Source: a virus. Taken from it: 64,000 bases of DNA. A program made the position numbers and the translations under genes. Location: UHGV virus genome UHGV-0018639; one strand, 5' to 3'. Below are positions 1 to 57,383 of the stretch, one piece after another (positions within the stretch are counted from its first letter, which is position 1; each line of letters begins with the position of its first letter). The notes under the pieces were generated by a model. It saw nothing but the letters and a program-made list of their open reading frames with translations. It was not told the origin of the DNA and searched no databases.

Positions 1-537
1 ATACCATGCAAGAAACTTGTGCCAACCTTTATTGCTGGTCTGAATGGAGCGTTCTTCCTTCGGTCTGCCGTGCTTGTCAAATCCGGTTAGCGTTCTAATC
101 TTGCCGAACTTCTCAAGCCCTGCGATAAAAAACCAGATAGGCATGAGCAACGCCGGAGTATGAACTTCCGGAGCTATTCCGGTTTTCTTGGATGGCGTTC
201 CCGCCCAGTCAAGGCGGTAAACGATGAAGCGCGGCTTGCCGTCTTTCGCTTGATATTGCAGGCCGCGATACAAGCTCTCTACACGTCCGCCGCAGGTTTT
301 GCACTCAAGCGGACAGAAAACTTTCTGCCCGTCTATCAGCATTTGGATGGTATTGTCTTTGTAGCCGTCTAGCGCTACATCTTCTTTTTCGCTCTTGAAG
401 CGCGTCATTTCAAGCTCGAAGGCTCTACCACGTGCGCCACAATTCACGCCTTCAACAGGCGCAAGCCCTTCCGACTCTTCCCAGCGGCGCAGGTAATAGT
501 CAAGATTGCGCGCGCGTTCGATTTGGTGTTTGTTCAT
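1..537 (-). CDS. hypothetical protein, 5' part only (gene runs off the left window edge); ATG at 537-535
   Basis: The frame is open on the minus strand from the ATG (rc of 535-537) to position 1. An RBS-like aggaagg sits upstream (rc of 541-555). It is absent from the ORF track because it is truncated by the edge. It is divergent from the + strand genes. Confidence 0.5.
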   Translation of the reverse strand, partial: MNKHQIERARNLDYYLRRWEESEGLAPVEGVNCGARGRAFELEMTRFKSEKEDVALDGYKDNTIQMLIDGQKVFCPLECKTCGGRVESLYRGLQYQAKDGKPRFIVYRLDWAGTPSKKTGIAPEVHTPALLMPIWFFIAGLEKFGKIRTLTGFDKHGRPKEERSIQTSNKGWHKFLAWY

Positions 538-897
538 GTGTAACTTCCTTCCTAAATTTGTTATTTGTCCCGCTATGCGGCGTCCACTCCGCGCGGGCTA
601 TATGTAACTGTCAAGGTTCAATTTTCGCTTCGGGGCTTGTCTCTTGCCCCTTGGCAATTATGATTATAGCACTTTCTGCGCGAAAGTCAAGAATTTTTAG
701 ACTGAAAAAACTAACAAACAATCGCCCATTTTTTGATCCATTTTTGTCTAAAATGACGGACAAACCATTACCAAACTTTTGCCAGAACTTCCCTAAAAAT
801 TTACAAATGACAAATTGTGAAAAATTTAACAAGCTAGGGCGCCCATATTTTGGTAAATGGGCTTCCAGTTTCTTCCAAAGGGTCGGGGCCTCCAAAC

Positions 898-1017
898 AAA
901 TTTGCAAAAATTTCAAAATTCAAATTCAAAAATTTCAAAATTCAAATTTGCAAAAATTTCAAAATTCAAATTCAAAAATTTCAAAATTCAAATTTGCAAA
1001 AATTTCAAAATTTGACT
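898..1017. repeat. about five tandem copies of a ~23-bp unit (aattYRcaaaaatttcaaaattca), iteron/operator-like, overlapping the -35 of the downstream promoter
   Basis: Direct reading: aatttgcaaaaatttcaaaattca / aattcaaaaatttcaaaattca alternate with a 46-bp super-period. The ORF track translates this as a KFQNSN repeat, which is spurious. Confidence 0.7.
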
Positions 1018-1040
1018 TTCTCCCTTTCTTGTGCTATAAT
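1012..1040 (+). promoter_or_regulatory. sigma-A type promoter: TTGACT (1012-1017), 17-bp spacer, TATAAT (1035-1040)
   Basis: Perfect consensus hexamers with 17-bp spacing. The RBS aaaggag is at 1091-1097 and the ATG at 1104. Confidence 0.6.
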
Positions 1041-1103
1041 TATAAGTAGAAGAAATAGGTAGGGAAAGAATTAGTAAATTTTCCCATACTAAAGGAGACT
1101 TAT

Positions 1104-2564
1104 ATGTATATACATACATCTAACTTAGACGCTCAACCGCGTCGAAAATCAACATTATCGCTCGACTGGACGCTTGAAACAGCAGTCGAGCGCACAGATT
1201 TTTTGGAAACCTATTTGGCCAATCGAACCGTCCCTCTCTCCGAGTCTGACCTCGAAATGTGTGGAAACTATCTACTTTGGGGACGTGGCTCAAACGGCCT
1301 AAATGCTGAACAAGAAGGTTACGTCCAATTAGAGCGCCGCAACTCTACATGGGCCTCTAGCGCAAATACCCGCCAAGTGTCCTCAATTGAAGAACTAACA
1401 GAAAACCCAACTTTTGATGAGGCGCAATTTCACTCACTGGCCGACACAACTTATAAAACACCCAAACCAAACTTTTCACGTGAAGAATGCCTACGCAAAG
1501 CCCCGCCTGAATTCATTCCAATGCTACGGGATTTGTTTGGGCGCATTGACCGTGTTGAACTATCAATTGGGTTTTATGATAGGGCGCACGGCAAACGCAA
1601 GACAGACTTGCCTGAGCGCCTAACACGCAAGTTTTCACCCGAAGAGCTGTTTGATTTAGAAGAACGCGCGCTTAGCTGGACAAATGGTCAGTATCTCAAG
1701 AAGAAGCATCTTTTAGTGGAGCTGAGACGCGAACAATATACCATAAAGGACAGTTTTTCTAATAGTCTAATGGCACGACCCACAAATAAGTTTGTGGAGG
1801 AGGTTTCACCGACATTTTGCGGGCCAGAATCAGCGGAGGATGGATTTTTGGTTCTCCCTATTGGCTTGTCTGACTCTGCAAGACAAACGCAAGGCAAAAA
1901 CAAGTCGGTCAACTGGTTTTTAGAATTTGAGGAACTTGCCGTGAAAAAAGATGATCCGGCCTATCAAACGCAAGCCCGCAAGTTGGAGAGCCGACTAATC
2001 GAGCGAGGAATTTGTCAGCCACATAAGACAACTAAAAAAACGCAAGAACCCCAAGGAAACGCGTCTCAAAAATCGGCCATGCCATTCGGCTTTCTTACAA
2101 TTGACTTCCGCAATCCGGCCCACATTTGTAGATTGTTGGATAGCCAAAAGCTACTAATAACTGACCCCTCTCTCTCACGAGTGCGCGATACCCTTGATTT
2201 TTATATGCGGCAGGCCAATTTGACCCCCATTCAACAAAAAGTGCTTGAACTCAAACTAGCCGGTAAGCAAAATATGGATATCAAGGAAATTGTCAATAAA
2301 GAATTTGACCGCTCTTATCAGGCAAATTACATTTCCACCATTTATCGACAATACGTAGCCCCCGCAATTGCGGATGCTGCAACTCGTCATTTGGAAATTG
2401 TGCGCGCTATCGCTGAGGGGCCAGAACGTTTCAAATACTGCTCGGTCTGCGGCCGCCTGTTAGTAGAGAGCGAAACCTATTTCATACACAAGAGCCGCGC
2501 AAAATCAGGTTTTTCAGCTCGCTGTAAACAGTGTGATCATGACTATCGGCAAAGGAGAAAGTAA
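1104..2564 (+). CDS. putative transcription regulator: sigma-70 region-4-like HTH (LTPIQQKVLELKLAGKQNMDIKEI) plus C-terminal C4 zinc ribbon
   Basis: ORF track 486 aa with a strong RBS. There is a region-4-like HTH motif and a C-terminal CxxC...CxxC. The function is inferred from motifs only. Confidence 0.5.
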   Translation: MYIHTSNLDAQPRRKSTLSLDWTLETAVERTDFLETYLANRTVPLSESDLEMCGNYLLWGRGSNGLNAEQEGYVQLERRNSTWASSANTRQVSSIEELTENPTFDEAQFHSLADTTYKTPKPNFSREECLRKAPPEFIPMLRDLFGRIDRVELSIGFYDRAHGKRKTDLPERLTRKFSPEELFDLEERALSWTNGQYLKKKHLLVELRREQYTIKDSFSNSLMARPTNKFVEEVSPTFCGPESAEDGFLVLPIGLSDSARQTQGKNKSVNWFLEFEELAVKKDDPAYQTQARKLESRLIERGICQPHKTTKKTQEPQGNASQKSAMPFGFLTIDFRNPAHICRLLDSQKLLITDPSLSRVRDTLDFYMRQANLTPIQQKVLELKLAGKQNMDIKEIVNKEFDRSYQANYISTIYRQYVAPAIADAATRHLEIVRAIAEGPERFKYCSVCGRLLVESETYFIHKSRAKSGFSARCKQCDHDYRQRRK

Positions 2565-2993
2565 ATGAAAGAAAAAGAAAATAAAGTTTCTGTGAAACAG
2601 TTCCAAGAATTCTTGGACTTGTTCTCACAACTTCAAATTTATGACCTAATCGCGCTATGCCAGATTATGAGCACTCCGATGGGTTATGAAAAACAAGAAG
2701 GGGAGGAACGCGCACGCCCGCGTGAGTTAGCTGACATTTTGGAGGAAGTGATGGATAAGTTTCTAGCGCTTCCGAGGGCAAGCCGCAAAGATCTGTTGAA
2801 GGTAATGCGCGTTGCTGTTAAAAATCCATCGCCTGAACCCAAAGAATTCACAAAAATGGCAGCCGCGAAATCAGGCAGGTTAGCTACTCCATCGAACGAT
2901 TCGATTGAATGTGTTGATGGTAAATCTGCTCTACAGACTTGTCCTACTCACACGTGCAGCGTTGCCTCAAAAACAAGTGAAGGTGATACCTAA
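2565..2993 (+). CDS. hypothetical protein
   Basis: ORF track 142 aa, translationally coupled to its neighbours (ATG overlaps the previous stop). Confidence 0.55.
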   Translation: MKEKENKVSVKQFQEFLDLFSQLQIYDLIALCQIMSTPMGYEKQEGEERARPRELADILEEVMDKFLALPRASRKDLLKVMRVAVKNPSPEPKEFTKMAAAKSGRLATPSNDSIECVDGKSALQTCPTHTCSVASKTSEGDT

Positions 2994-4021
2994 TGCCCGG
3001 ACTCGGACCCCAGATGATTCGCCCACGAATTGAGACACAAACTTGTTCATGGTGCGAGTCGCTTTTGGGAAGCGATGAATTTGCTTATACAAATTCTCCT
3101 TTCTATCCTAAAAAGCGCCTTCCGATGTGTAATTCGTGCATCAAACAGTATTTGGTTGAAAAAGATTTTCAATGGGATGCTATTGATCGCATTTGCCAGT
3201 GCGCCGACGTTCCGTTCGTCCCACGAGAATTTGAGCGAGTTCACAACGAGAAAGGTGATGATTGTTTTCCCATCTACGCGGCACTTTTTGCGACCTCTGA
3301 ATATGAGGGGCTTGGATGGGACAATTATTACAAGGCTTATAAACAATTGCGCGATAACGGCCAGTTGATTGATGAGCTTCCATTGCTAGCAGAAGACAAG
3401 CGCGCAAAATTGATCGACCGATGGGGCGCCAATTATGATGATGAGGCTTTGACATACCTTGAACAACTTTATCAAGGCTTACAGGCCACACAGAATATTG
3501 CAGGTGCTCTCCAAAGCGACCAAGCCTATAAAATTTGTAAGATTTCCTATGAGATTGACTGCCGCATTAGAGAAGGCGTTGATTTTGATAAGCTGTTAGG
3601 CTCTTATGATAAGCTTGTCAAGACAGCCGAATTTACACCGAAAAATGCGAAAAATGCAGCTGACTTTGATACCACAGGGGAATTGATTAAATTCTTAGAG
3701 AAAAAAGGCTGGCGTTGTAAATATTATGATGGCGTTACAAGAGATATTGTTGATGAAACAATCAAAAACATTCAAGCCTACAACCAGCGTCTTTATACAA
3801 ATGAAAGCGGCCTTGGTGAGGAAATAACTCGTCGCATTGAAGCCCTTGAACGTGCGAAAAAACTTGAGGGCGCGGAGCAGTCTTTCGAAGAGCGTTATTA
3901 TGGTGAAAGCACGGATGTTAGCGATAATGAAGCTGACCTCTATGAAACCGAAGGCTATAAGGAGCTTCTTTCAATGGACGGCGACGATTTTGAAGCAGAG
4001 GTTGAAGGTTATGACTCCTAA
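2993..4021 (+). CDS. hypothetical zinc-finger protein; by position a possible small terminase subunit
   Basis: ORF track 342 aa with CxxC...CxxC near the N-terminus. It lies immediately upstream of, and overlaps, terL exon 1. No sequence-level evidence for TerS. Confidence 0.5.
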   Translation: MPGLGPQMIRPRIETQTCSWCESLLGSDEFAYTNSPFYPKKRLPMCNSCIKQYLVEKDFQWDAIDRICQCADVPFVPREFERVHNEKGDDCFPIYAALFATSEYEGLGWDNYYKAYKQLRDNGQLIDELPLLAEDKRAKLIDRWGANYDDEALTYLEQLYQGLQATQNIAGALQSDQAYKICKISYEIDCRIREGVDFDKLLGSYDKLVKTAEFTPKNAKNAADFDTTGELIKFLEKKGWRCKYYDGVTRDIVDETIKNIQAYNQRLYTNESGLGEEITRRIEALERAKKLEGAEQSFEERYYGESTDVSDNEADLYETEGYKELLSMDGDDFEAEVEGYDS

Positions 4022-46979: not shown

Positions 46980-47748
46980 CATATTATCCCATATCCCTAT
47001 GGGTACTGACTATATCTTCATTCCACTAAAAAGTGGAGTTGTCTTCCGCTTCGAGTGAGTGCCTATCTCTCACCCTACTCCCTTACATTCATCAGGGATA
47101 GTCGATACACTTCATTCATCATAATAAAAATTATAAGGAGTATTATTTGTCCGTTGCTGTAAAAGAAAGGTCCTGATACGATGTCTATCAATACCAGTTT
47201 TACGTTCGCATTCTCTCATTGACTTATAGTGAAAACGTTCTTTTGTCTCTTTATTTTCAGCAATTATCCAAATTCCACGCCCTTTATGCGGATTTATATA
47301 ATTGTTTTCCTGATAAGCCTTTCTAATATTTTCGCTGTGAGATACGGCCCGCAAATTAGAAAGTTCATTATGTGATTTATTTCCATCAATATGGTCTACA
47401 ACTGTACAATTATCAAGAAAAACTTCCGCCATAAGGCGATGAACGCGAGTTCGTATTCGATTGCCACCAAGACAAAGAACTACGTGTTGATACATATCAA
47501 TGCCAATATATGGACTAATTATTCTTCCCGTTTTAAAATTGATTATTTGAGCATCTTCATTTATACCAAATTGATTATTCAAACTTGGAATGGGCATAAA
47601 TTCTTTCATTATCTCACCTCCTTTTCATATTTATGATATATGATGAATTTTAGCACGGCCTCATCTGTTCTAGACCTAGCCGTTAGCCGCATTTGCGACA
47701 CCCGCGGGCGCGGTTCAAAAGATTTTATATGAGCTGCAGTTTTCACTT
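46980..47748 (-). mobile_element. group I intron (769 nt) in nrdD with an HNH homing endonuclease ORF
   Basis: On the - strand the exon 1 end ..ugu aug ggU(47749) joins ugc agg(46979..) to give CMG|CRSFL (the conserved NrdD MGCRSFL). P1 is uaugggU:Gcucaua (rc of ~47720-47726). P10 is cugca:ugcag. R-like gtatcgactatcc and S aagatatagtcag (rc of 46991-47003). P9 hairpin and terminal G46980. Confidence 0.8.
47112..47609 (-). CDS. HNH homing endonuclease (VDHIDGNKSHNELSNLRAVSHSEN)
   Basis: 165 aa with RBS aaggagg upstream. It lies inside the nrdD intron. Confidence 0.8.
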   Translation of the reverse strand: MKEFMPIPSLNNQFGINEDAQIINFKTGRIISPYIGIDMYQHVVLCLGGNRIRTRVHRLMAEVFLDNCTVVDHIDGNKSHNELSNLRAVSHSENIRKAYQENNYINPHKGRGIWIIAENKETKERFHYKSMRECERKTGIDRHRIRTFLLQQRTNNTPYNFYYDE

Positions 47749-50267: not shown

Positions 50268-51759
50268 TTACTCACCCCTTACATGAGTTGTTATACGGCC
50301 ATATTCATCAATATCTGTTATTTCTTCAACCAGATGGTATGGGGTTCGGGAATATTTCTTCGCCAGAAATCCATCATCCTTTCTAATGCCACATACGATT
50401 ATCTTGTTGCCACGTGAGAAAGTGCTGCGACTGATAACGTGTTTCTTCCCATCAGGCCCTCTCTCCGAAATTTGCTTATCATAATTAGCAAATGCTTCGC
50501 CAAAAATTTTGACCTGAACAACGCCATCTTTTGTCAATAACGAAACAATTTTCTTTGCCTTATCCCTATCCAATACAGTTCCGCAAATACGATGTATTCT
50601 ATAAATCGGAACCGGCGCGCTATCACTATCCTTGCCGCGCGGTTTGAAGTAAGTCTCAACATCAGGCTGCTCTTTCAGTTTGAAGAAGTTTGAAAAGCCT
50701 TGCGCACGTTCATCAACATTTTGAAGTTCATGTTCGTGGAAATAACATGAAACGCTATCCATCTCCCACTTGCTTATTGAACCAAGACAATATTTATTCC
50801 AGATATCTCGCGTTAATCGCTCATTCACGGTATCTAGCAACTCATCATGATTTTCTTTTATCCACTTGCGGACATTATCCATATATTTCTTATAAATTTT
50901 GTCCCAAGCCGTGATGTTAATTTTGAAGCCACTTTCAGTTTCATTGCTTGCGCTCAAACAGTCAAGTGAAAAATTCTTATCAAGGAAATTCAATGCGATA
51001 TTATCTATGCCATAGAATGATGTGTCTAACTTCATTTTCTTGAGATACTTTGTGAAGTTATAAACACGACGCTCAAAATCAAGATTTTCGGGAATCAACC
51101 CAAAGTTTATCAACATTGCCATATTCTGAAGAGTGATACGTTTCTTTGTGTCGCTAATCAGGCTGACATATTCGCGCATTAAATCTACTCTATCACCAAA
51201 TGCATCAAAAGCTCCGCATTTTATGAGGTTTATCATTTGTGGCTTGTTGATTTTTACTTTGGAAAGAAAATCGGAGATTGAGTTATAGGGTCGATTTGCG
51301 ATTATGGATTTAACGATGTCTTCGCCGACTTTGACGATACCGCTCATACCATAACGAATTGTTGAATTTTCAACATCAGGAGAGAAAGTAAAAGTAGATT
51401 TGTTGATATCTGGAGGAGAAACCGAAATACCGGCCATTCGCATTTTACCGATTGCTGATGCAATTTTGCCATAGTTAGTCGTTTTGACTTTTTTCTTTTT
51501 CTTTTTTACATCAATTTTTTCTTCTTCGTCTTCATCTTCGTCGTCATCTTCGGTATCATCAACAAATTCTTCAATACAGTTGTTATAACTATATTCAATA
51601 ATATCTTCTGGCGTTTCGTCATCGTTCTCATCATTTGATTCATTGCCGCCGCTATCGCTAATCAAACACGCGCAATTCCAAAAAATTGTTGGAAAACGAT
51701 ATGCAAGATTCATTTCCTGCAAAGCCACAAGCGAGTAGGAAAGAGTATGTGCTCGACAA
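50268..51759 (-). CDS. dnaE: DNA polymerase III alpha (DnaE-type) exon 2 (..CRAHTLSYSLVALQEMNLAYRFP.., acidic insert, HhH GISVSPPDINKS, OB domain)
   Basis: ORF track 50268..51728. The frame is open upstream to 51759. Exon 2 begins UUGU.. after terminal G51760. The joined GYSF|CRAHTLSYSLV matches DnaE GYGFNKSHSAAYALV. Confidence 0.8.
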
Positions 51760-52862
51760 CTTACCGCACATAGTTTCTTATGCCAGATTTACTCTGTTGC
51801 GGTCTGGACTATACCATCAATTTCATTGTTTCCAATGAAAAAGTCCTTATTATAGTCTCTGAACGTTTTTCTTATCTCAATATATTTTCTATTCATACCA
51901 AAAGGCTTATTATAAACTAGAGCGATTAGTTTTAGGATATTGAACTGATTAGCGGTTTCAACTCTATATAAGCTATCTTCAGTTTTTCTTATATGTAAAT
52001 CTTCCATAAAGAAATTTTCTACTAAGATTTTTTCAATCCATTTGATAAATTCTTCAGATGCTGATACTATATAAAATTGAGCACCGCCATAAGAAGTTTT
52101 ACTGACACACCCATCACCGTCTATTATACCACGAATAATGTAAGGCAAATATCGCTTTTCTTGCTCATACAATTGCGGCGCCGGTATAATATATGTTTTA
52201 TTCTTTATTATACCATAACGGGCAGCCTCAGCTTGAAGACCCGGCCTATTTATCAATACCCTATATCGAGTTTGCTTTCCAGCTTGAGGATAGGCCTTAT
52301 AAGTTATTCCAATTCCTTTAGCTATAAAAGCAATAACATCTTCGTCCACCATATCCAACCCTAAGCCATCTCGATCGCTCAATAGATATCCATCCGTAAG
52401 CAGTAGCCCGATTAGATATGCATCGAACGGACTTTTGATTTCAGATAACGAATAGGTATATCCTCGACGATTATCTTGCGCTTGCCGTATAATTTCTTGA
52501 TATTCATCTGGATAATACTTTTTTACCTTGTCGGTTATAGACTTCTTTGTTTTATAACCATATCGACCCATTAGCTCTGAAACCGATGCCCCATTCTTAT
52601 ATTCTTCAACTAATTTTAGTTCATCTTCTTTTGATATTTTCTGATAACCCATAGTATATCCCTCCTAAGAATAAGTAGCCCTATTCAAATAGAAATACAC
52701 TAAAATAAGAAACTTCGCTGCGGATTATCCAATTCTAAATGATTTTACTATACCCTCTCTCTTTCTGAGAGGCCGCGATATTATTGCTAATATCGTTTAG
52801 TTATTTAGACTCTAAGGAAGTCCCCGCAATTTCAAGGATTTATACTCGTCTTGTATTAGTCA
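51760..52862 (-). mobile_element. group I intron (1103 nt) in dnaE with a LAGLIDADG homing endonuclease ORF
   Basis: - strand: an 8-bp P1 uacucguU(52870-52863):Gacgagua (rc of 52848-52841). P10 is uugu:acaa. P element aaauugcgggga (rc of 52821-52832). Q element aauccgcagc (rc of ~52716-52725). S gguauaguccag (rc of 51803-51814). P9 hairpin and terminal G51760. Confidence 0.8.
51789..52652 (-). CDS. LAGLIDADG homing endonuclease (two motifs LIGLLLTDGYL and IRGIIDGDGCV) with N-terminal HTH
   Basis: 287 aa with RBS aggaggg. Its C-terminal end overlaps the intron S/P9 region. Confidence 0.8.
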   Translation of the reverse strand: MGYQKISKEDELKLVEEYKNGASVSELMGRYGYKTKKSITDKVKKYYPDEYQEIIRQAQDNRRGYTYSLSEIKSPFDAYLIGLLLTDGYLLSDRDGLGLDMVDEDVIAFIAKGIGITYKAYPQAGKQTRYRVLINRPGLQAEAARYGIIKNKTYIIPAPQLYEQEKRYLPYIIRGIIDGDGCVSKTSYGGAQFYIVSASEEFIKWIEKILVENFFMEDLHIRKTEDSLYRVETANQFNILKLIALVYNKPFGMNRKYIEIRKTFRDYNKDFFIGNNEIDGIVQTATE

Positions 52863-55360
52863 AACGAGTACCCGCGCTGAACTCTGAACAAAACGTCCCA
52901 TACATAATGGGCAAAAGTCATATCACAACCTTTTTCTTTTGCATTTTCAAAATAGGCTTTTTCACATTCATCAAAGAGTTTGCCTTGTTTTTTTGCAATT
53001 GCCTTTCGACATTTATCTGCAAAAGTCAGATTATTCCCTCCGAGTCTTTCTTCCTGCAGAAGCTGCATCATTCCTTCTTGACTCTCACATATGCCACTCG
53101 TTATCGCATTATGTCCAATTAACCATTTTATATCTTCATTTTTTAATCCATATTGAATCATTTCGTCTCGCCATTCATTGATATTCAAACGATATCTTGC
53201 CCACATATCAAGTGGCTGCTCAGCTCCTTTTTCAGGAGCCATTAGACGAATTACTGAATTCAAAACAGCTAATTCACTAACGTTTTTAGGATGAGTTAGC
53301 GCTATGCCAGAAATGCCGCTCGGTTGTTCCATTTGAAACAAACTGGATATCTTATGATTCCAAACCATTTCCCACATTTCTGGTGCAGTTCGTTCAAGAT
53401 TATATATGCCAATTACACTTTCATAAGTTTCACGTAATGTTGGCTTTCGCTCTATATAACCATAATCACATAACAAATCTAGCTCATTGTGTATTTTATC
53501 AAGAGCTTCAATTGACAACATATCAATTTTGATCAGCGATGCGTCCTCCGCATCATGGAGTTCAAAAGCCGTAATGACCGTGCCATCAGGCGCGCGTGTT
53601 AGCGCTGTCGATTCCGTAAAAGGCTCGTCAACGAAGATCACTCCACCGGCGTGGACGCCAATGCCACAAATTAACCCCTCAATTTTTGAAGCAACTTCCC
53701 AAACATCACTGTAGGTTTTCATTGCTTCAACAAATTGCTTTACTGGCTTAAAACCTTTATCTTCATCACCCTCTATACATTGGGTAAGTGAGCGAAGTTG
53801 CCCGCGATCAGCTGGAATCAGAGATGCCAAATAGGATGCTACATCAACATCAATTCCCAAGCCACGGCAGGCCGTTAGAATTGCTGATTTAGATTTTTCT
53901 GTTTTGAATGTAATAACATTCGCAACTCTGTCTTCCCCATAAAACTCACGGAATTTCTGTAAAACTTGTGCACGACGTCCGCCTTCAATATCAGTATCAA
54001 CGTCCAATACCGACGCACGTTCGGGATTAAGAAAACGCCAATGAAATACTTGAGTTTCTTCTTGAATTGGATTTATCTGTGTTATATCTAATGCATATAA
54101 CAAAATAAATCCTGCACCTGAACCACGCCCCGGCCCAACAAGAGAACCAGCTTCCCAACATAAATCAATATTTTTCTGCAGATTCAGAAAATAAGTCGAC
54201 CAATGCGTGTGATTTGTTATCGACGAACGCCATGTATCATCAAGACAAATATTTATCTCATCATACGCTCGTTTGTTCTGCAAACCCGGCTTCCGTTGGA
54301 TGCCGTCAATAATCGCCCAAACCAGTTTTCTATCACCCCAATAATCAGAGTTATAGAAAGTTTCTAAATAAGGAATTTCATGTTTGAGAATATCATATGC
54401 TGCCTCATCTTCAGGAAATGTTTTCCAATAAAGTTCTGGAATTTTTAAGGGGCGCATTAGTGAAAAATCTTCACACATTTCACCTATCTTGAGAATATTA
54501 TAATATGCAACTTGAAGTTGTTCTTCGGTGAAATAATCGAAATACTCTTCTATTTCTTTCGTATTCATAAGATACGTAGTAGCATAGAAATCATCTACTT
54601 CTCGTTCACCATTCTGTGCATTGAGATATGCCTTATGAATCGCGCGATCTTCTTTTTTGAGATAATGGCTATCAGTTGTTATAACATAAGAAATGTCGTA
54701 TTTAGCTGATAATTCAAGCAACTTTTTATTTACATAAATTTGTTCTTTGTTATGACTTGGTTGCATTTCAAAAAAGAAATTACCGTGCCCAAAAAGTTTA
54801 TCCAAAGATAAAATCCAATTTTCAATTTTGCTATTGAGCGAGCTATCATTTCGTGCTTTGAGAAGCTGAGTAGGAAGACAGCCACCGAGGCAAGCTGTCA
54901 TTCCCACAATGTGTCCCGGATTAGCCCCTACGATTTCAAACAAATCACTATAATAAGTTGGCATACGACGCATACCACGCGCCATATAACTACGTAATCC
55001 TGCACGAGTAGATAATTCTCTAATTTGTTTATGCCCAATCGCGTCTTTTGCTAACAAAATAAAGTGATAATATTTATCTTGTCCTGTAATAAAATTCGAT
55101 GCATTTAACCCATTTCGACAAAGATAAATTTCATTTCCTTGAATAAATTTGAAATCAGGGTATTTTTCTTTTACTTTTTTATAATACTTTTCTGCCTTAA
55201 TCGCGCCAGATATTGACTCATGGTCTGTAAGAGCGACGACTTTATGACCCAACTCGATGGCGCGATCAATTAGGTCTGAGACTTTTATTATACAGTCTCG
55301 AAGCCTTTCATTAGAATAATCCGAGTGGTTATGTAATGACCCCGGATACGGAATATTCAA
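52863..55360 (-). CDS. dnaE: DNA polymerase III alpha (DnaE-type) exon 1 (PHP domain LHNHSDYS.., GRGSGAGFILLYALDITQINP, ..RGYSF)
   Basis: ORF track 52856..55360. The exon ends at the second U of UUU (52863); the D codon and stop of the ORF track are intron-encoded. Confidence 0.8.
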
Positions 55361-55423: not shown

Positions 55424-55891
55424 TCAAAAACTCCACTCCGCGTTTTCAACTTCAACGTCTACGATTTGCAATTGTGGGGTATAATTTCCAAGCCATTCGT
55501 TGACATTCGGCTTGCCCACAATCGTTAAACACATTTCAGGCCATTTGTGAAGTTTTTCAATCAAATCTTTCGCACGGAACTTTATGTAAGTAATTCCATT
55601 CTTTTCAATTCGTATCGTGTCTTGACTCTTACCAATTATCTTTACATCCGCAGGTCTTATGTAAAGGTTTGTTATCGCCATAAGACTTTGAGGATTGTTC
55701 TGACCCCAAACTCTCTCATATCGCGCGAGGTCGAATATGATGTTGGATATATCATTGTCGCTTGCTTTGCGGACAAAATCGACGTCGTAATTATTATCGC
55801 CAAAATCGTAAGCCACGAGTTGAGTGTTAGATAAGGCAAGAAGTTCATTATAGCTATTAGCTGGAATGGCAAACCCAGCTGCATTAGCGTG
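55424..55891 (-). CDS. recJ: RecJ-like DHH-family exonuclease, exon 2 (starts HANAAGF.. = DHHA1 GGGHxxAAG motif)
   Basis: ORF track 55424..55918 (GTG start). The frame is open upstream to 55891. Exon 2 starts CAC GCU after terminal G55892. Confidence 0.65.
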   Translation of the reverse strand, partial: HANAAGFAIPANSYNELLALSNTQLVAYDFGDNNYDVDFVRKASDNDISNIIFDLARYERVWGQNNPQSLMAITNLYIRPADVKIIGKSQDTIRIEKNGITYIKFRAKDLIEKLHKWPEMCLTIVGKPNVNEWLGNYTPQLQIVDVEVENAEWSF

Positions 55892-56135
55892 CGTGTAATC
55901 CCTTGTTTCCAAGGGCACTGACTATTTCTTACATATGTAAAACATATGAATACCCATTTCGGGCGGCGTACCAATAGCCGTCCTACTTCTCCGATTCGAG
56001 AATAGTCGATACAGGTTCCTTGTCGTATGACAAGTCTTCCCACGAGATTAGCATATCTTTCGACTTAGCTTTCCTCGTTAGCCGCGAATGCGACCCCACT
56101 GGTAAGTGGAAAAGGTATAACGGGCCAATTCCTCA
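55892..56135 (-). ncRNA. small ORF-less group I intron (~244 nt) in the recJ-like gene
   Basis: - strand: exon 1 ..GAU UAC GUA CAG GGU(56136) then an in-frame UGA, and exon 2 CAC GCU AAU GCA GCU GGG, give ..DYVQG|HANAAGF (DHHA1 motif). R-like guaucgacuauuc (rc of ~56006-56018). S-like aagaaauaguca (rc of ~55919-55930). P9 is cccuug-gaaa-caaggg, then terminal G 9 nt later. P1 is gggU:Gccc (4 bp). Confidence 0.6.
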
Positions 56136-57383
56136 ACCCTGTACGTAATCAAATAAACTAGTATCTAACAAATAATCCTTGAACGACGTAAGCGCGCTCT
56201 GTGAAAGACCTCTAATACTTCCCTTTATCATTCCATCGGGGCCTTCGCGGCCTATCATTGTAGGCTTATGATACCGCGCGCTAAGCTGTGTTGCAATCAA
56301 ACCATTCAACTCAGGCGGGAAGTTATCATCGTCATCAAGTTTTACAAATAAAATTTTGTTTTCAAGTAAATCATACTTATGTATCTTATACTCAAGTTGC
56401 TCAGTTGCTTTTTCTTTTGCTTTATCTTGGTGCGACTTCGCGTTCGTACATTCGCGTGCACTTTCGATTGCAAGCTTTTCAAGAGTCCCCTTCGCACCAC
56501 GCTTGCCGCTAGGCACAAGTTCCTCACCAGCAACAACTGCACGATAGAGACGTTTTTTCTCATCTTGTGAACCTACACGTATCATTGCGTTGATAAGCGG
56601 CGTTATGTAAAATGCGACAGTTGTTGGATTGACCTCGCCGCCCATTGAGTAGGACTGCTTTTCAACAAGAGTTTTGAGGAAAAAGTTTCGTATGTTGGCA
56701 CAACCTTGCTGGACAATGAACTGATTTTCGTATGATAGCATACTTACCATATCACTTATAATACCCAACGCCGCTAAGTCAATATATTCCCAAGCCCAAT
56801 TATGGCCAAACGCATCATCAAGCGCACGGCAGAACTGCCACACGACACCAGCGCCGCACAGGTCTTTGTTCTGATAAGCGGGGCTTGTCTGATTGTTTAT
56901 TAGAATCATATTAGGCGGAATTTCGCTTGTGGGTTCTAATTCGTGGTGGTCGATGCAGAGCACGGGACAGTCTAACTGTTTGATATACTCACCATCGTTA
57001 GTTCCCGCGTCCGGGACTATGACACCGCTCCAACTATGTTCAAGCAACTTATCCATCACATCACTACAACCGTGCTGTTTGCCGCTGTGTATTATCTGTA
57101 TAATATGCTTTACGGGATTGAGTCGCTTTATGTATTGATAAATAATGCCGCTTGACGTCAAGCCGTCCGCATCACAATCACAAATTAGCCCCAGTGGATT
57201 TTCATCATTCAAGTTTTGTCTGATAAAATCAATACCTTCATCTATATTATCCAGCGCGCGGTAACTCTGTAAGCACGACTCATCAGGATTCAAGAACAGA
57301 TCAACGTCTTCAATTCCTCTCAATCGTAAAATTTGTTCTCCATAGTTTTCATATATTCCATCGTTTGTCAATTTATATTTCAC
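56136..57383 (-). CDS. recJ: RecJ-like DHH phosphoesterase/exonuclease, exon 1 (DCDADGLTS, IDHH motifs)
   Basis: ORF track 56133..57383. DHH motifs I-III are visible. Confidence 0.7.

Follow-up and report, generated by a model that had tools for sequence, protein, structure and literature searches.

Three open reading frames (ORFs) lie head to tail on the minus strand of the UHGV virus genome UHGV-0018639, in a stretch of 64,000 nt that was analysed as a whole (hereafter the window): 55360..52856, 52652..51789 and 51728..50268. The first (834 aa) matches the Pfam families PHP, DNA_pol3_alpha and DNA_pol3_finger, the last (486 aa) matches HHH_6, and the middle one encodes a LAGLIDADG protein. 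The outer two belong to one DnaE-type polymerase gene, similar to yorL of the Bacillus prophage SPbeta, which is split at 52863|51759 by an insert of 1,103 nt (51760..52862). We argue that the insert is very probably a mobile group I intron that has no P2 helix, carries a P5abc-like extension, and sits in a phenylalanine codon of the fingers motif GY(S/G)F-NKSH of a phage replicative polymerase. The gene and its insert consist of the following features, on the minus strand as are all further features listed.

52863..55360, minus strand: exon 1 of the polymerase, ending in GGG TAC TCG TT (G, Y, S and the first two bases of the Phe codon), from Pfam matches and the open spliced frame
51760..52862, minus strand: predicted group I intron of 1,103 nt, starting with UGACUAAUACAA and ending with GCGGUAAG, from gapless flanks against the related contig L003, covariation, and homologues that reach the gathering score of the Rfam model RF00028
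51789..52652, minus strand: homing-endonuclease gene of 864 nt (287 aa) in loop L6a, matching Pfam LAGLIDADG_3 (39.4 bits, cut-off 22.5)
50268..51759, minus strand: exon 2 of the polymerase, starting with U UGU CGA GCA CAU (F-CRAH...), from HHH_6 and colinearity with the homologue P0001

Host polymerase and splice junction

Joining 52863 to 51759 gives one open frame of 1,329 aa, ...VLFRVQRGYSF|CRAHTLSYSLVALQEMNLAY..., in which the PHP, Pol III alpha catalytic, fingers and helix-hairpin-helix domains are colinear according to Pfam. When the spliced protein was used as a database query, thousands of unbroken relatives of 1,320-1,335 aa were found. The best of them, P0001 (1,328 aa, 94% protein identity), reads unbroken RVQRGYSFCRAHTLSYSLV across the predicted junction. 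Its DNA, on contig L003, aligns without gaps to the exon ends of the window (GGATACTCATTCTGCCGC against GGGTACTCGTT|TTGTCGAGC), and the L003 allele, which has no intron, reads GGATACTCATTCTGCCGCGCACAC at the junction. With any other boundary inside the TTT run, the intron would end in A or T and the U·G pair would no longer lie at the splice site. At the level of sequence, the exact junction is confirmed by this unbroken, 94%-identical homologue; taken with the covariation described below, the agreement lies well outside what chance would give. By its domains the host gene is a DnaE (C-family) polymerase. A note made earlier from the sequence alone (the original prediction) had named a DnaE-type gene with the junction GYSF|CRAHTLSYSLV and had suggested an alignment with polymerase III alpha profiles; gene type and junction agree with the above, and the ORFs of both exons do match the Pfam polymerase domains.

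In the PDB the polymerase matches Pol III alpha of Taq and of E. coli, and YSFCRAH is placed on YGFNKSH. For Thermus aquaticus Pol III alpha, the counterpart of the insertion motif is Y-G-F-N-K-S-H, which lies in the 737-841 stretch of the 2HPI/3E0D chain; in E. coli alpha it is the corresponding fingers segment. This stretch is among the best-conserved of the polymerase family, and such conservation is what one expects of a homing site. Synonymous differences between the window and L003 amount to 5/24 near the homing site versus 24/150 overall, and no enrichment around the site relative to the background could be distinguished.

Predicted ribozyme structure

The elements of the predicted ribozyme are listed below in the order of the transcript; MFE denotes the minimum free energy fold.

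52870..52863, minus strand: 5' strand of P1, the last 8 nt of exon 1, UACUCGUU, with the wobble U52863·G52850 at the 5' splice site
52856..52858, minus strand: TAA stop, in frame with exon 1 and two codons past the 5' splice site, within L1, a loop of 12 nt
52851..52854, minus strand: intron side of P10, ACAA, pairing with UUGU, the first four nt of exon 2 (51759..51756)
52850..52843, minus strand: internal guide sequence, the 3' strand of P1, GACGAGUA, giving a P1 of 8 bp
52833..52838, minus strand: 5' strand of P3, UCCUUG, pairing with UAAGGA at 51849..51844; P3 crosses P7 and so forms a pseudoknot
52832..52821, minus strand: P element, aaauugcgggga, from sequence inspection
52719..52828, minus strand: P4 (UGCGGG, 52828..52823, with UCCGCA, 52724..52719), enclosing P5 and a three-way P5a/P5b/P5c extension, from the partial RF00028 alignment and the MFE fold
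52726..52717, minus strand: Q element, aauccgcagc, from sequence inspection
52705..52718, minus strand: 5' strands of P6 (GCG) and P6a (UUUCUUAU), with partners ~830 nt downstream at 51875..51863
51863..51875, minus strand: 3' strands of P6a (AUAAGAAA) and P6 (CGU), which also encode the endonuclease residues I-R-K-T
51851..51864, minus strand: R element, GUUCAGAGACUAUA, an exact match that was absent from the list of the original prediction
51859..51852, minus strand: 5' strand of P7, G[A]GACUAU, with a bulged A, within the R element
51821..51840, minus strand: P8 hairpin, UUUCAUUG-GAAA-CAAUGAAA, from the MFE fold and from relatives that differ in sequence and are still paired (read by eye)
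51815..51804, minus strand: S element, gguauaguccag, from sequence inspection
51806..51812, minus strand: 3' strand of P7, AUAGUCC, inside the S element
51763..51803, minus strand: P9 (ACCGCA with UGCGGU), enclosing P9a (CAGA/UCUG, with the ORF stop 51791..51789 inside) and P9b (CAUA/UAUG), from covariation and the MFE fold
51760, minus strand: terminal G of the intron, at the 3' splice site

The R and S elements are exact matches to consensus-like sequences. The bulged nucleotide next to a G-C pair in P7 predicts that this helix would bind guanosine. Between the end of the guide sequence and the P element there are only 10 nt, and 6 of these 10 are the 5' strand of P3. The 8-bp P1 with U:G at the splice site, the Q and S elements, and the little or no room for P2 had all been proposed in the original prediction and were recovered here at the positions listed; its placement of the P element 24 nt downstream could not be reproduced. 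P7.1 and P7.2, the hallmark of subgroup IA2, are absent, with only AA between the 5' strand of P7 (ending at 51852) and P3' (starting at 51849); in their place the intron has the P5abc-like three-way extension. An unconstrained MFE fold of the intron with its ORF deleted recovered every helix except the pseudoknotted P3, at -82.3 kcal/mol versus -58.7 ± 5.2 for shuffles (z = -4.53).

Rfam matches and covariation

No group I match was found when the whole window was scanned with Rfam at the gathering threshold. In E-value mode, the window copy matched over P4 to P6 only (15.2 bits, E = 0.66). The low score is explained by the 864-nt LAGLIDADG gene in L6a, and the P5abc-like extension is handled as an insertion by the RF00028 model. 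Homologues at the same site that have no ORF match positions 1-253 of the model, with 50.6 bits for L040 (E = 6.6e-11, which passes) and 49.0 bits for L051. The Rfam scan suggested in the original prediction therefore fails to give a complete match for the window copy itself and gives full-length ones for these ORF-less homologues. Rfam likewise missed the related introns in Vibrio phages and a crAss-like phage at E <= 0.1. A local P6 hairpin (AGC...GCU) offered by Rfam was rejected, since the long-range P6/P6a pairing covaries and is closed in ORF-less relatives.

For covariation we used 22 distinct copies (set A2), in which loop L6a was cut out and P7 was written as a pseudoknot, and we counted the proposed pairs. 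Standard pairs occupy 94.7% of 1,382 cells, versus 36-43% after sliding the 3' partners 1-3 columns along the alignment, and both sides have changed in 40/64 pairs. The covariation score is 0.435, versus 0.06-0.10 with slid partners. The numbers of compensatory pairs for each helix are:

P3: 5/6
P5: 2/3
P5a: 7/7
P5b: 8/8
P5c: 5/6
P6: 2/3
P6a: 4/8
P9: 2/6
P9b: 4/4

P4 and most of P7 are invariant; P7 is 99.4% paired and has one double change from G-C to A-U. P1 and P10 were scored separately in each sequence because MAFFT misaligns copies with P2 against those without it. The guide sequence fits its own exon in 24/24 copies, for example UUCGUU/GACGAA, GGCUUU/GAAGCC, GGAUUU/GAAUCC and UACUCCUU/GGGGAGUA, and P10 changes together with exon 2 among the relatives (UAUU/AAUG, GCA/UGC, UUG/CAA, ACUA/UAGU). 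Covariation, the full-length RF00028 matches of the ORF-less homologues and the MFE fold together support the assignment of the insert RNA to the group I ribozymes, as the original prediction had it.

Several points weigh against a spliced, mobile group I intron. The window copy lies below the gathering threshold of RF00028 (50 bits), so that its group I membership rests on homology and covariation. The sequences are related by descent, and the shuffle control of the covariation score (0.138, with 0/500 shuffles as high as the observed value) therefore overstates significance, the slid-partner control being the fairer one. The terminal G served as the criterion for placing the 3' splice sites of the relatives, which makes its universality partly a matter of construction. 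Finally, splicing and endonuclease activity are predictions from sequence.

LAGLIDADG gene and its overlap with the ribozyme core

The ORF in L6a is preceded by a Shine-Dalgarno sequence, as follows.

52666..52660, minus strand: Shine-Dalgarno AGGAGGG, upstream of the endonuclease ATG, in L6a

Judged by its sequence, the product is a monomeric-type LAGLIDADG protein with two motifs, LIGLLLTDGY and IIRGIIDGDG, each with a putative catalytic acidic residue; G82-L-x-L-T-D87-G-Y and R174-G-x-I-D178-G-D180-G are invariant in alignment A1. The family assignment in the original prediction is borne out by these motifs and by the LAGLIDADG_3 match. We found 586 homologous proteins at E <= 1e-5; the top 120 are all 66-91% identical and, except for three of 260-284 aa, are 285-291 aa long. 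An exact-sequence look-up of the endonuclease found no record, and its tblastn search against cultured phages gave one match only, with 31% identity.

The final ~29 codons of the gene (EIRKTFRDYNKDFFIGNNEIDGIVQTATE) double as P6a', P6', J6/7, P7, J7/3, P3', P8, J8/7, P7' and the start of P9, the ORF ending in P9a; the original prediction had already described the ORF as running through the P7/P9 region. The R element, read as ACG UUC AGA GAC UAU AAU, encodes T-F-R-D-Y-N, which is invariant in 6/6 aligned endonucleases (46-92% identical overall), the invariant residues of A1 spanning R261-N268. The end of the ORF varies among relatives and falls in P8, J8/7 or P9. Among the group I introns of bacteria and phages, overlap of an ORF with core sequence and an in-frame stop close to the start of the intron are both recognised features, for which limited translation of the ORF is presumed to be necessary (PMC3984707, Hausner et al. 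2014).

UAGUGUAUUUCU and AGGGAUAUACUA form a helix in the window's MFE fold (52702..52655, minus strand), covering part of the Shine-Dalgarno sequence and the spacer. Analogous pairings of different sequence occur in relatives (CUCAUCUC/GAGGUGAG; CCUCC/GGAGG; CUUCUU/AGGAGG). The Shine-Dalgarno sequence is paired in the MFE folds of most copies, with a pairing probability of 0.70 versus 0.60 in shuffled sequences (Wilcoxon p = 0.035). A hairpin that hides it might be guessed at from these folds, and we offer the idea weakly, as speculation.

A more far-reaching possibility is that the dual-coding overlap is functional and not incidental. The invariant tail R-K-T-F-R-D-Y-N-x-D, which is encoded by the R element, P7 and P3', would then be part of a switch between translation and splicing, in which the catalytic core is unfolded by ribosomes on their way through the end of the endonuclease gene; the protein tail might bind its own coding RNA and so act as a maturase, and the sliding of both splice sites at a single homing site, described below, could make the evolution of splice-site choice in mobile group I introns directly testable. 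We regard this proposal as doubtful.

Relatives at the same motif

Relatives were found with the endonuclease as query in viral and genome collections. There are 24 non-identical introns at the same polymerase motif, in host polymerases that are 33-94% identical near the site, and the distribution is patchy. The nearest polymerase (94%) has no intron. For L004 and L008, the flanking exons are 72-76% identical to the window in DNA and the intron is 87-88% identical. The endonuclease genes of L005 and L008 are frameshifted or riddled with stops, their ribozymes being intact. In L040/L041 (340 nt) and L051 (316 nt) the ORF has been lost: L040 retains a C-terminal remnant of the endonuclease only and L051 none, their ribozymes are again intact, and P6a is closed with a loop of ~30 nt. 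These patterns would be the expected picture for invasion, decay of the endonuclease, and loss.

P2 is a hairpin of 17-19 nt in 16 of the 24 copies and is absent from the other 8. The copies also fall into two splice phases that are one nucleotide apart, UU|U...G|N in 14 copies including that of the window and UUU|...AAAG|AAU in 10, with the P1 U·G and the 3'-terminal G moving in step between them. The intron copies related to that of the window come from metagenome-assembled genomes of Bacilli and Anaeroplasmatales and from viral contigs of 90-170 kb. A megablast search of the locus against cultured phages gave no match. In the distant mode of blastn, only the 5' half of the ribozyme was matched, at ~75% identity, in unrelated DNA polymerase introns of Vibrio phages and of the crAss-like phage cr271_1.

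A related ribozyme was also observed on a bacterial contig. In L016 (Clostridiales bacterium oral taxon 876, KE993464, ~910..2385) a bacterial-type DnaE, …SYAFNKSH | AAAYAVVGFQ…, is interrupted 13 nt downstream of the window site by an insert that contains this ribozyme and a gene for a 381-aa LAGLIDADG protein with 37% identity. Another LAGLIDADG-like ORF (13..552) lies just upstream. Possibly L016 represents a chromosomal dnaE that is interrupted by a group I intron.

Alternative explanations and proposed mechanism

Gene callers report three separate ORFs at the locus, which would also be seen if a free-standing homing-endonuclease gene had split the polymerase gene and the two halves were translated separately and assembled without RNA splicing. 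Exon 2 does have a possible GTG start at 51728, and replication and ribonucleotide reductase genes whose fragments work as assembled pieces are known in phages, such as the fragmented T4-like nrdA (PMC3045599). However, the ORF-less relatives of 316 and 340 nt break the same codon and match RF00028 over its full length, and 64 pairs are kept by compensatory change while P1 and P10 track the exon, which is unexpected for a free-standing gene. The break also interrupts a codon, in the best-conserved fingers motif, and a start at 51728 would lose 10 conserved residues. We therefore consider separate translation of the halves to be highly improbable. An intein or another protein-level element has a practically negligible probability: LAGLIDADG inteins do occur at other sites in the homologous polymerases P0033, P0076 and P0117, but here the frame of exon 1 meets TAA after two codons, by which the idea is already refuted; moreover, the endonuclease ORF starts ~210 nt into the insert, at an ATG with a Shine-Dalgarno sequence of its own, and a Pfam scan found no intein splicing blocks.

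That the element is a group I intron which no longer splices, the polymerase being a pseudogene in a decaying prophage, is a possibility to which we give very little weight. It would fit with the absence from the window copy of the P2 found in most relatives and with one A·C mismatch in P9b relative to L004. Nevertheless, all core helices of the window copy are intact, both exons and the endonuclease ORF are open, the neighbouring replication genes are intact, and seven further copies without P2 are found in diverged phages.

For a splicing and mobile group I intron, we infer catalysis, the activity and target of the endonuclease, and any control of translation from sequence, and the following course of events can be proposed. 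Ribosomes on exon 1 would halt at the in-frame TAA two codons into the intron and be released ahead of the ribozyme, a role suggested by PMC3984707. The RNA would then fold, with the last 8 nt of the exon and the guide sequence forming P1 and the U·G pair at 52863, and an external guanosine held in P7 would attack the 5' splice site. P10 (ACAA/UUGU) and the terminal G at 51760 would position exon 2, and ligation would restore the polymerase of 1,329 aa. Loop L6a would supply the two-motif LAGLIDADG gene with its own ribosome-binding site; the endonuclease presumably cuts intron-less alleles at the motif, and repair would copy the intron in (homing). As the last ~29 endonuclease codons would be P6a' through P9a, translation of this segment and folding of the ribozyme would be mutually exclusive on one RNA molecule.

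Comparison with known systems

The closest parallels are the introns of the Bacillus phages SPO1, SP82 and Bastille (I-HmuI, I-BasI), which also combine a group I intron and a homing endonuclease at a conserved catalytic motif of the phage's own replicative polymerase, in phages of Firmicutes (PMC2814812; references in PMC2504315). Those polymerases are of family A (Pol I-type) and their endonucleases are HNH nicking enzymes, whereas the polymerase here is of the C-family (DnaE/YorL-type) and the endonuclease is a LAGLIDADG protein with two motifs. The td intron of T4 with I-TevI likewise has its endonuclease gene looped out from the P6 region, but I-TevI is of the GIY-YIG family and the LAGLIDADG gene has a longer overlap, ~29 codons from P6a' to P9a. 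In the td class the 3' end of the ORF is reported (Gibb and Edgell 2010) to overlap the core, so that translation must be limited for splicing. In the scheme reported by Michel and Westhof (1990), subgroup IA2, with td as a member, has P7.1/P7.2 between P7 and P3'; the td intron thus differs from that of the window, which has neither. The overlap of ORF and core in the td class, and its demand for limited translation, are also summarised in PMC3984707, which does not count LAGLIDADG among the endonuclease families that phage introns encode most often.

SPbeta itself has introns and an intein in bnrdE/bnrdF, the ribonucleotide reductase genes of Bacillus prophages. The lineage is the same (YorF, YorH, YorL), and introns are likewise gathered in genes of DNA metabolism, as in the window with its probable introns in nrdD and in a RecJ-like gene; the host genes are other ones, however, and its own yorL, ~37% identical around the site, is unbroken. 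To RF00028, the ORF-less homologues align over the whole model and the window copy over P4 to P6. DnaE inteins, such as the cyanobacterial split DnaE intein, are similarly selfish elements with a LAGLIDADG-type nuclease lineage at conserved sites of C-family polymerases, but they are in frame and splice at the protein level, whereas the window element would leave at the RNA level.

The cultured Enterococcus phages EF1 and EF5 (GenBank MF001358) have a PolIII-alpha in three pieces, with two intervening sequences. In EF1 (L052) the first insert (962..1786) bears the annotation 'HNH homing endonuclease # Phage intron'. The other insert (~2909..3877), in the same GYSF motif, has a GIY-YIG ORF labelled hypothetical and carries no intron annotation. 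It differs from the window insert in that, by our own reading, it splits the Tyr codon (GGG U|AU UCU UUC), 7 nt upstream of the window site, and its ribozyme sequence is unrelated. Among the homologous polymerases, P0033, P0076 and P0117 have the inteins mentioned above, which are ~400 aa long with LAGLIDADG domains; that of P0033 lies within the PHP domain, past ...GSTAC. Inteins and no fewer than three distinct group I introns therefore target this polymerase family.

That phages have group I introns in their genes for DNA polymerase, ribonucleotide reductase and terminase is already well known (PMC3984707; PMC2814812; PMC2504315). In dnaE, DNA polymerase III or yorL, no such intron turned up in a search of the literature, which gave only inteins for dnaE; as its coverage is incomplete, this is absence of evidence only. 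A C-family polymerase as host of a group I intron thus appears to be undescribed in the literature searched, although the GenBank record of EF1 shows a split PolIII-alpha. The distinguishing points are the endonuclease family, which is less usual for phage introns, and the family of the host gene; the novelty is modest and no new mechanism is revealed. Replication genes are known to be favoured by phage group I introns, and the element would add a C-family (DnaE-type) polymerase to them. Unless the intron is recognised, the polymerase and hundreds of relatives in phage contigs from gut and rumen will be annotated as two truncated 'PolIII alpha' pieces and a hypothetical protein. With more than 20 diverged copies at one site, which have or lack P2, carry an intact, decayed or deleted endonuclease, and use two splice phases, the family offers material on the homing cycle, on the dual coding of ribozyme and ORF, and on LAGLIDADG specificity.

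Phage context and other observations in the window

The element belongs to a phage or prophage of the SPbeta type from an uncultured Firmicute, because the neighbours in L003 are YorF, YorH, a DnaB-type helicase, DHH/RecJ_OB and NrdD, and because the closest cultured relatives are the uninterrupted yorL genes of the SPbeta family. Exon 2 contains one further feature.

51480..51644, minus strand: low-complexity polymerase linker rich in acidic residues and lysine, 55 aa including 25 D/E, and then KKKKKK

The linker connects the fingers domain to the helix-hairpin-helix domain; at this place Taq alpha has ~9 residues and SPbeta YorL has 14 (IDTEDTKDNKKTAA). A long acidic linker is kept in all close homologues (P0001, P0002, P0049, P0079). 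It is typical of the clade, being an expanded version of the short acidic/lysine linker of SPbeta YorL, and it is unrelated to the intron. The poly-acidic insertion of ~60 aa in the original prediction is thus real, though it cannot be called unusual. In L025 and L026, exon 2 has an in-frame TAG directly past the intron (…SLVAL*EMNL…) where all relatives have Gln; these phages may read TAG as glutamine, or the genes may be pseudogenes.

Two other genes of the window are interrupted in a comparable manner, both on the minus strand. The nrdD gene is split into ...CYPCMG (ORF ending at 47743) and CRSFLTPY... (ORF starting at 46982) by an insert of ~760 nt (46983..47742), which contains an HNH_3-type ORF (47112..47609), a match to RF00028 at 46987..47173 (20.9 bits, E = 0.0076) and the S element GAAGAUAUAGUC; L003 has the same arrangement. 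This insert is probably a second group I intron of the window. A gap of 214 nt (~55919..56132) separates the DHH ORF (57383..56133) from the RecJ_OB ORF (55918..55424) and coincides with a full-length RF00028 match at 55899..56184 (35.3 bits, E = 1.4e-7), and L003, a 94%-related contig, has a GIY-YIG gene at this place. A group I intron without an ORF, interrupting a RecJ-like exonuclease gene, is the probable explanation of the gap.

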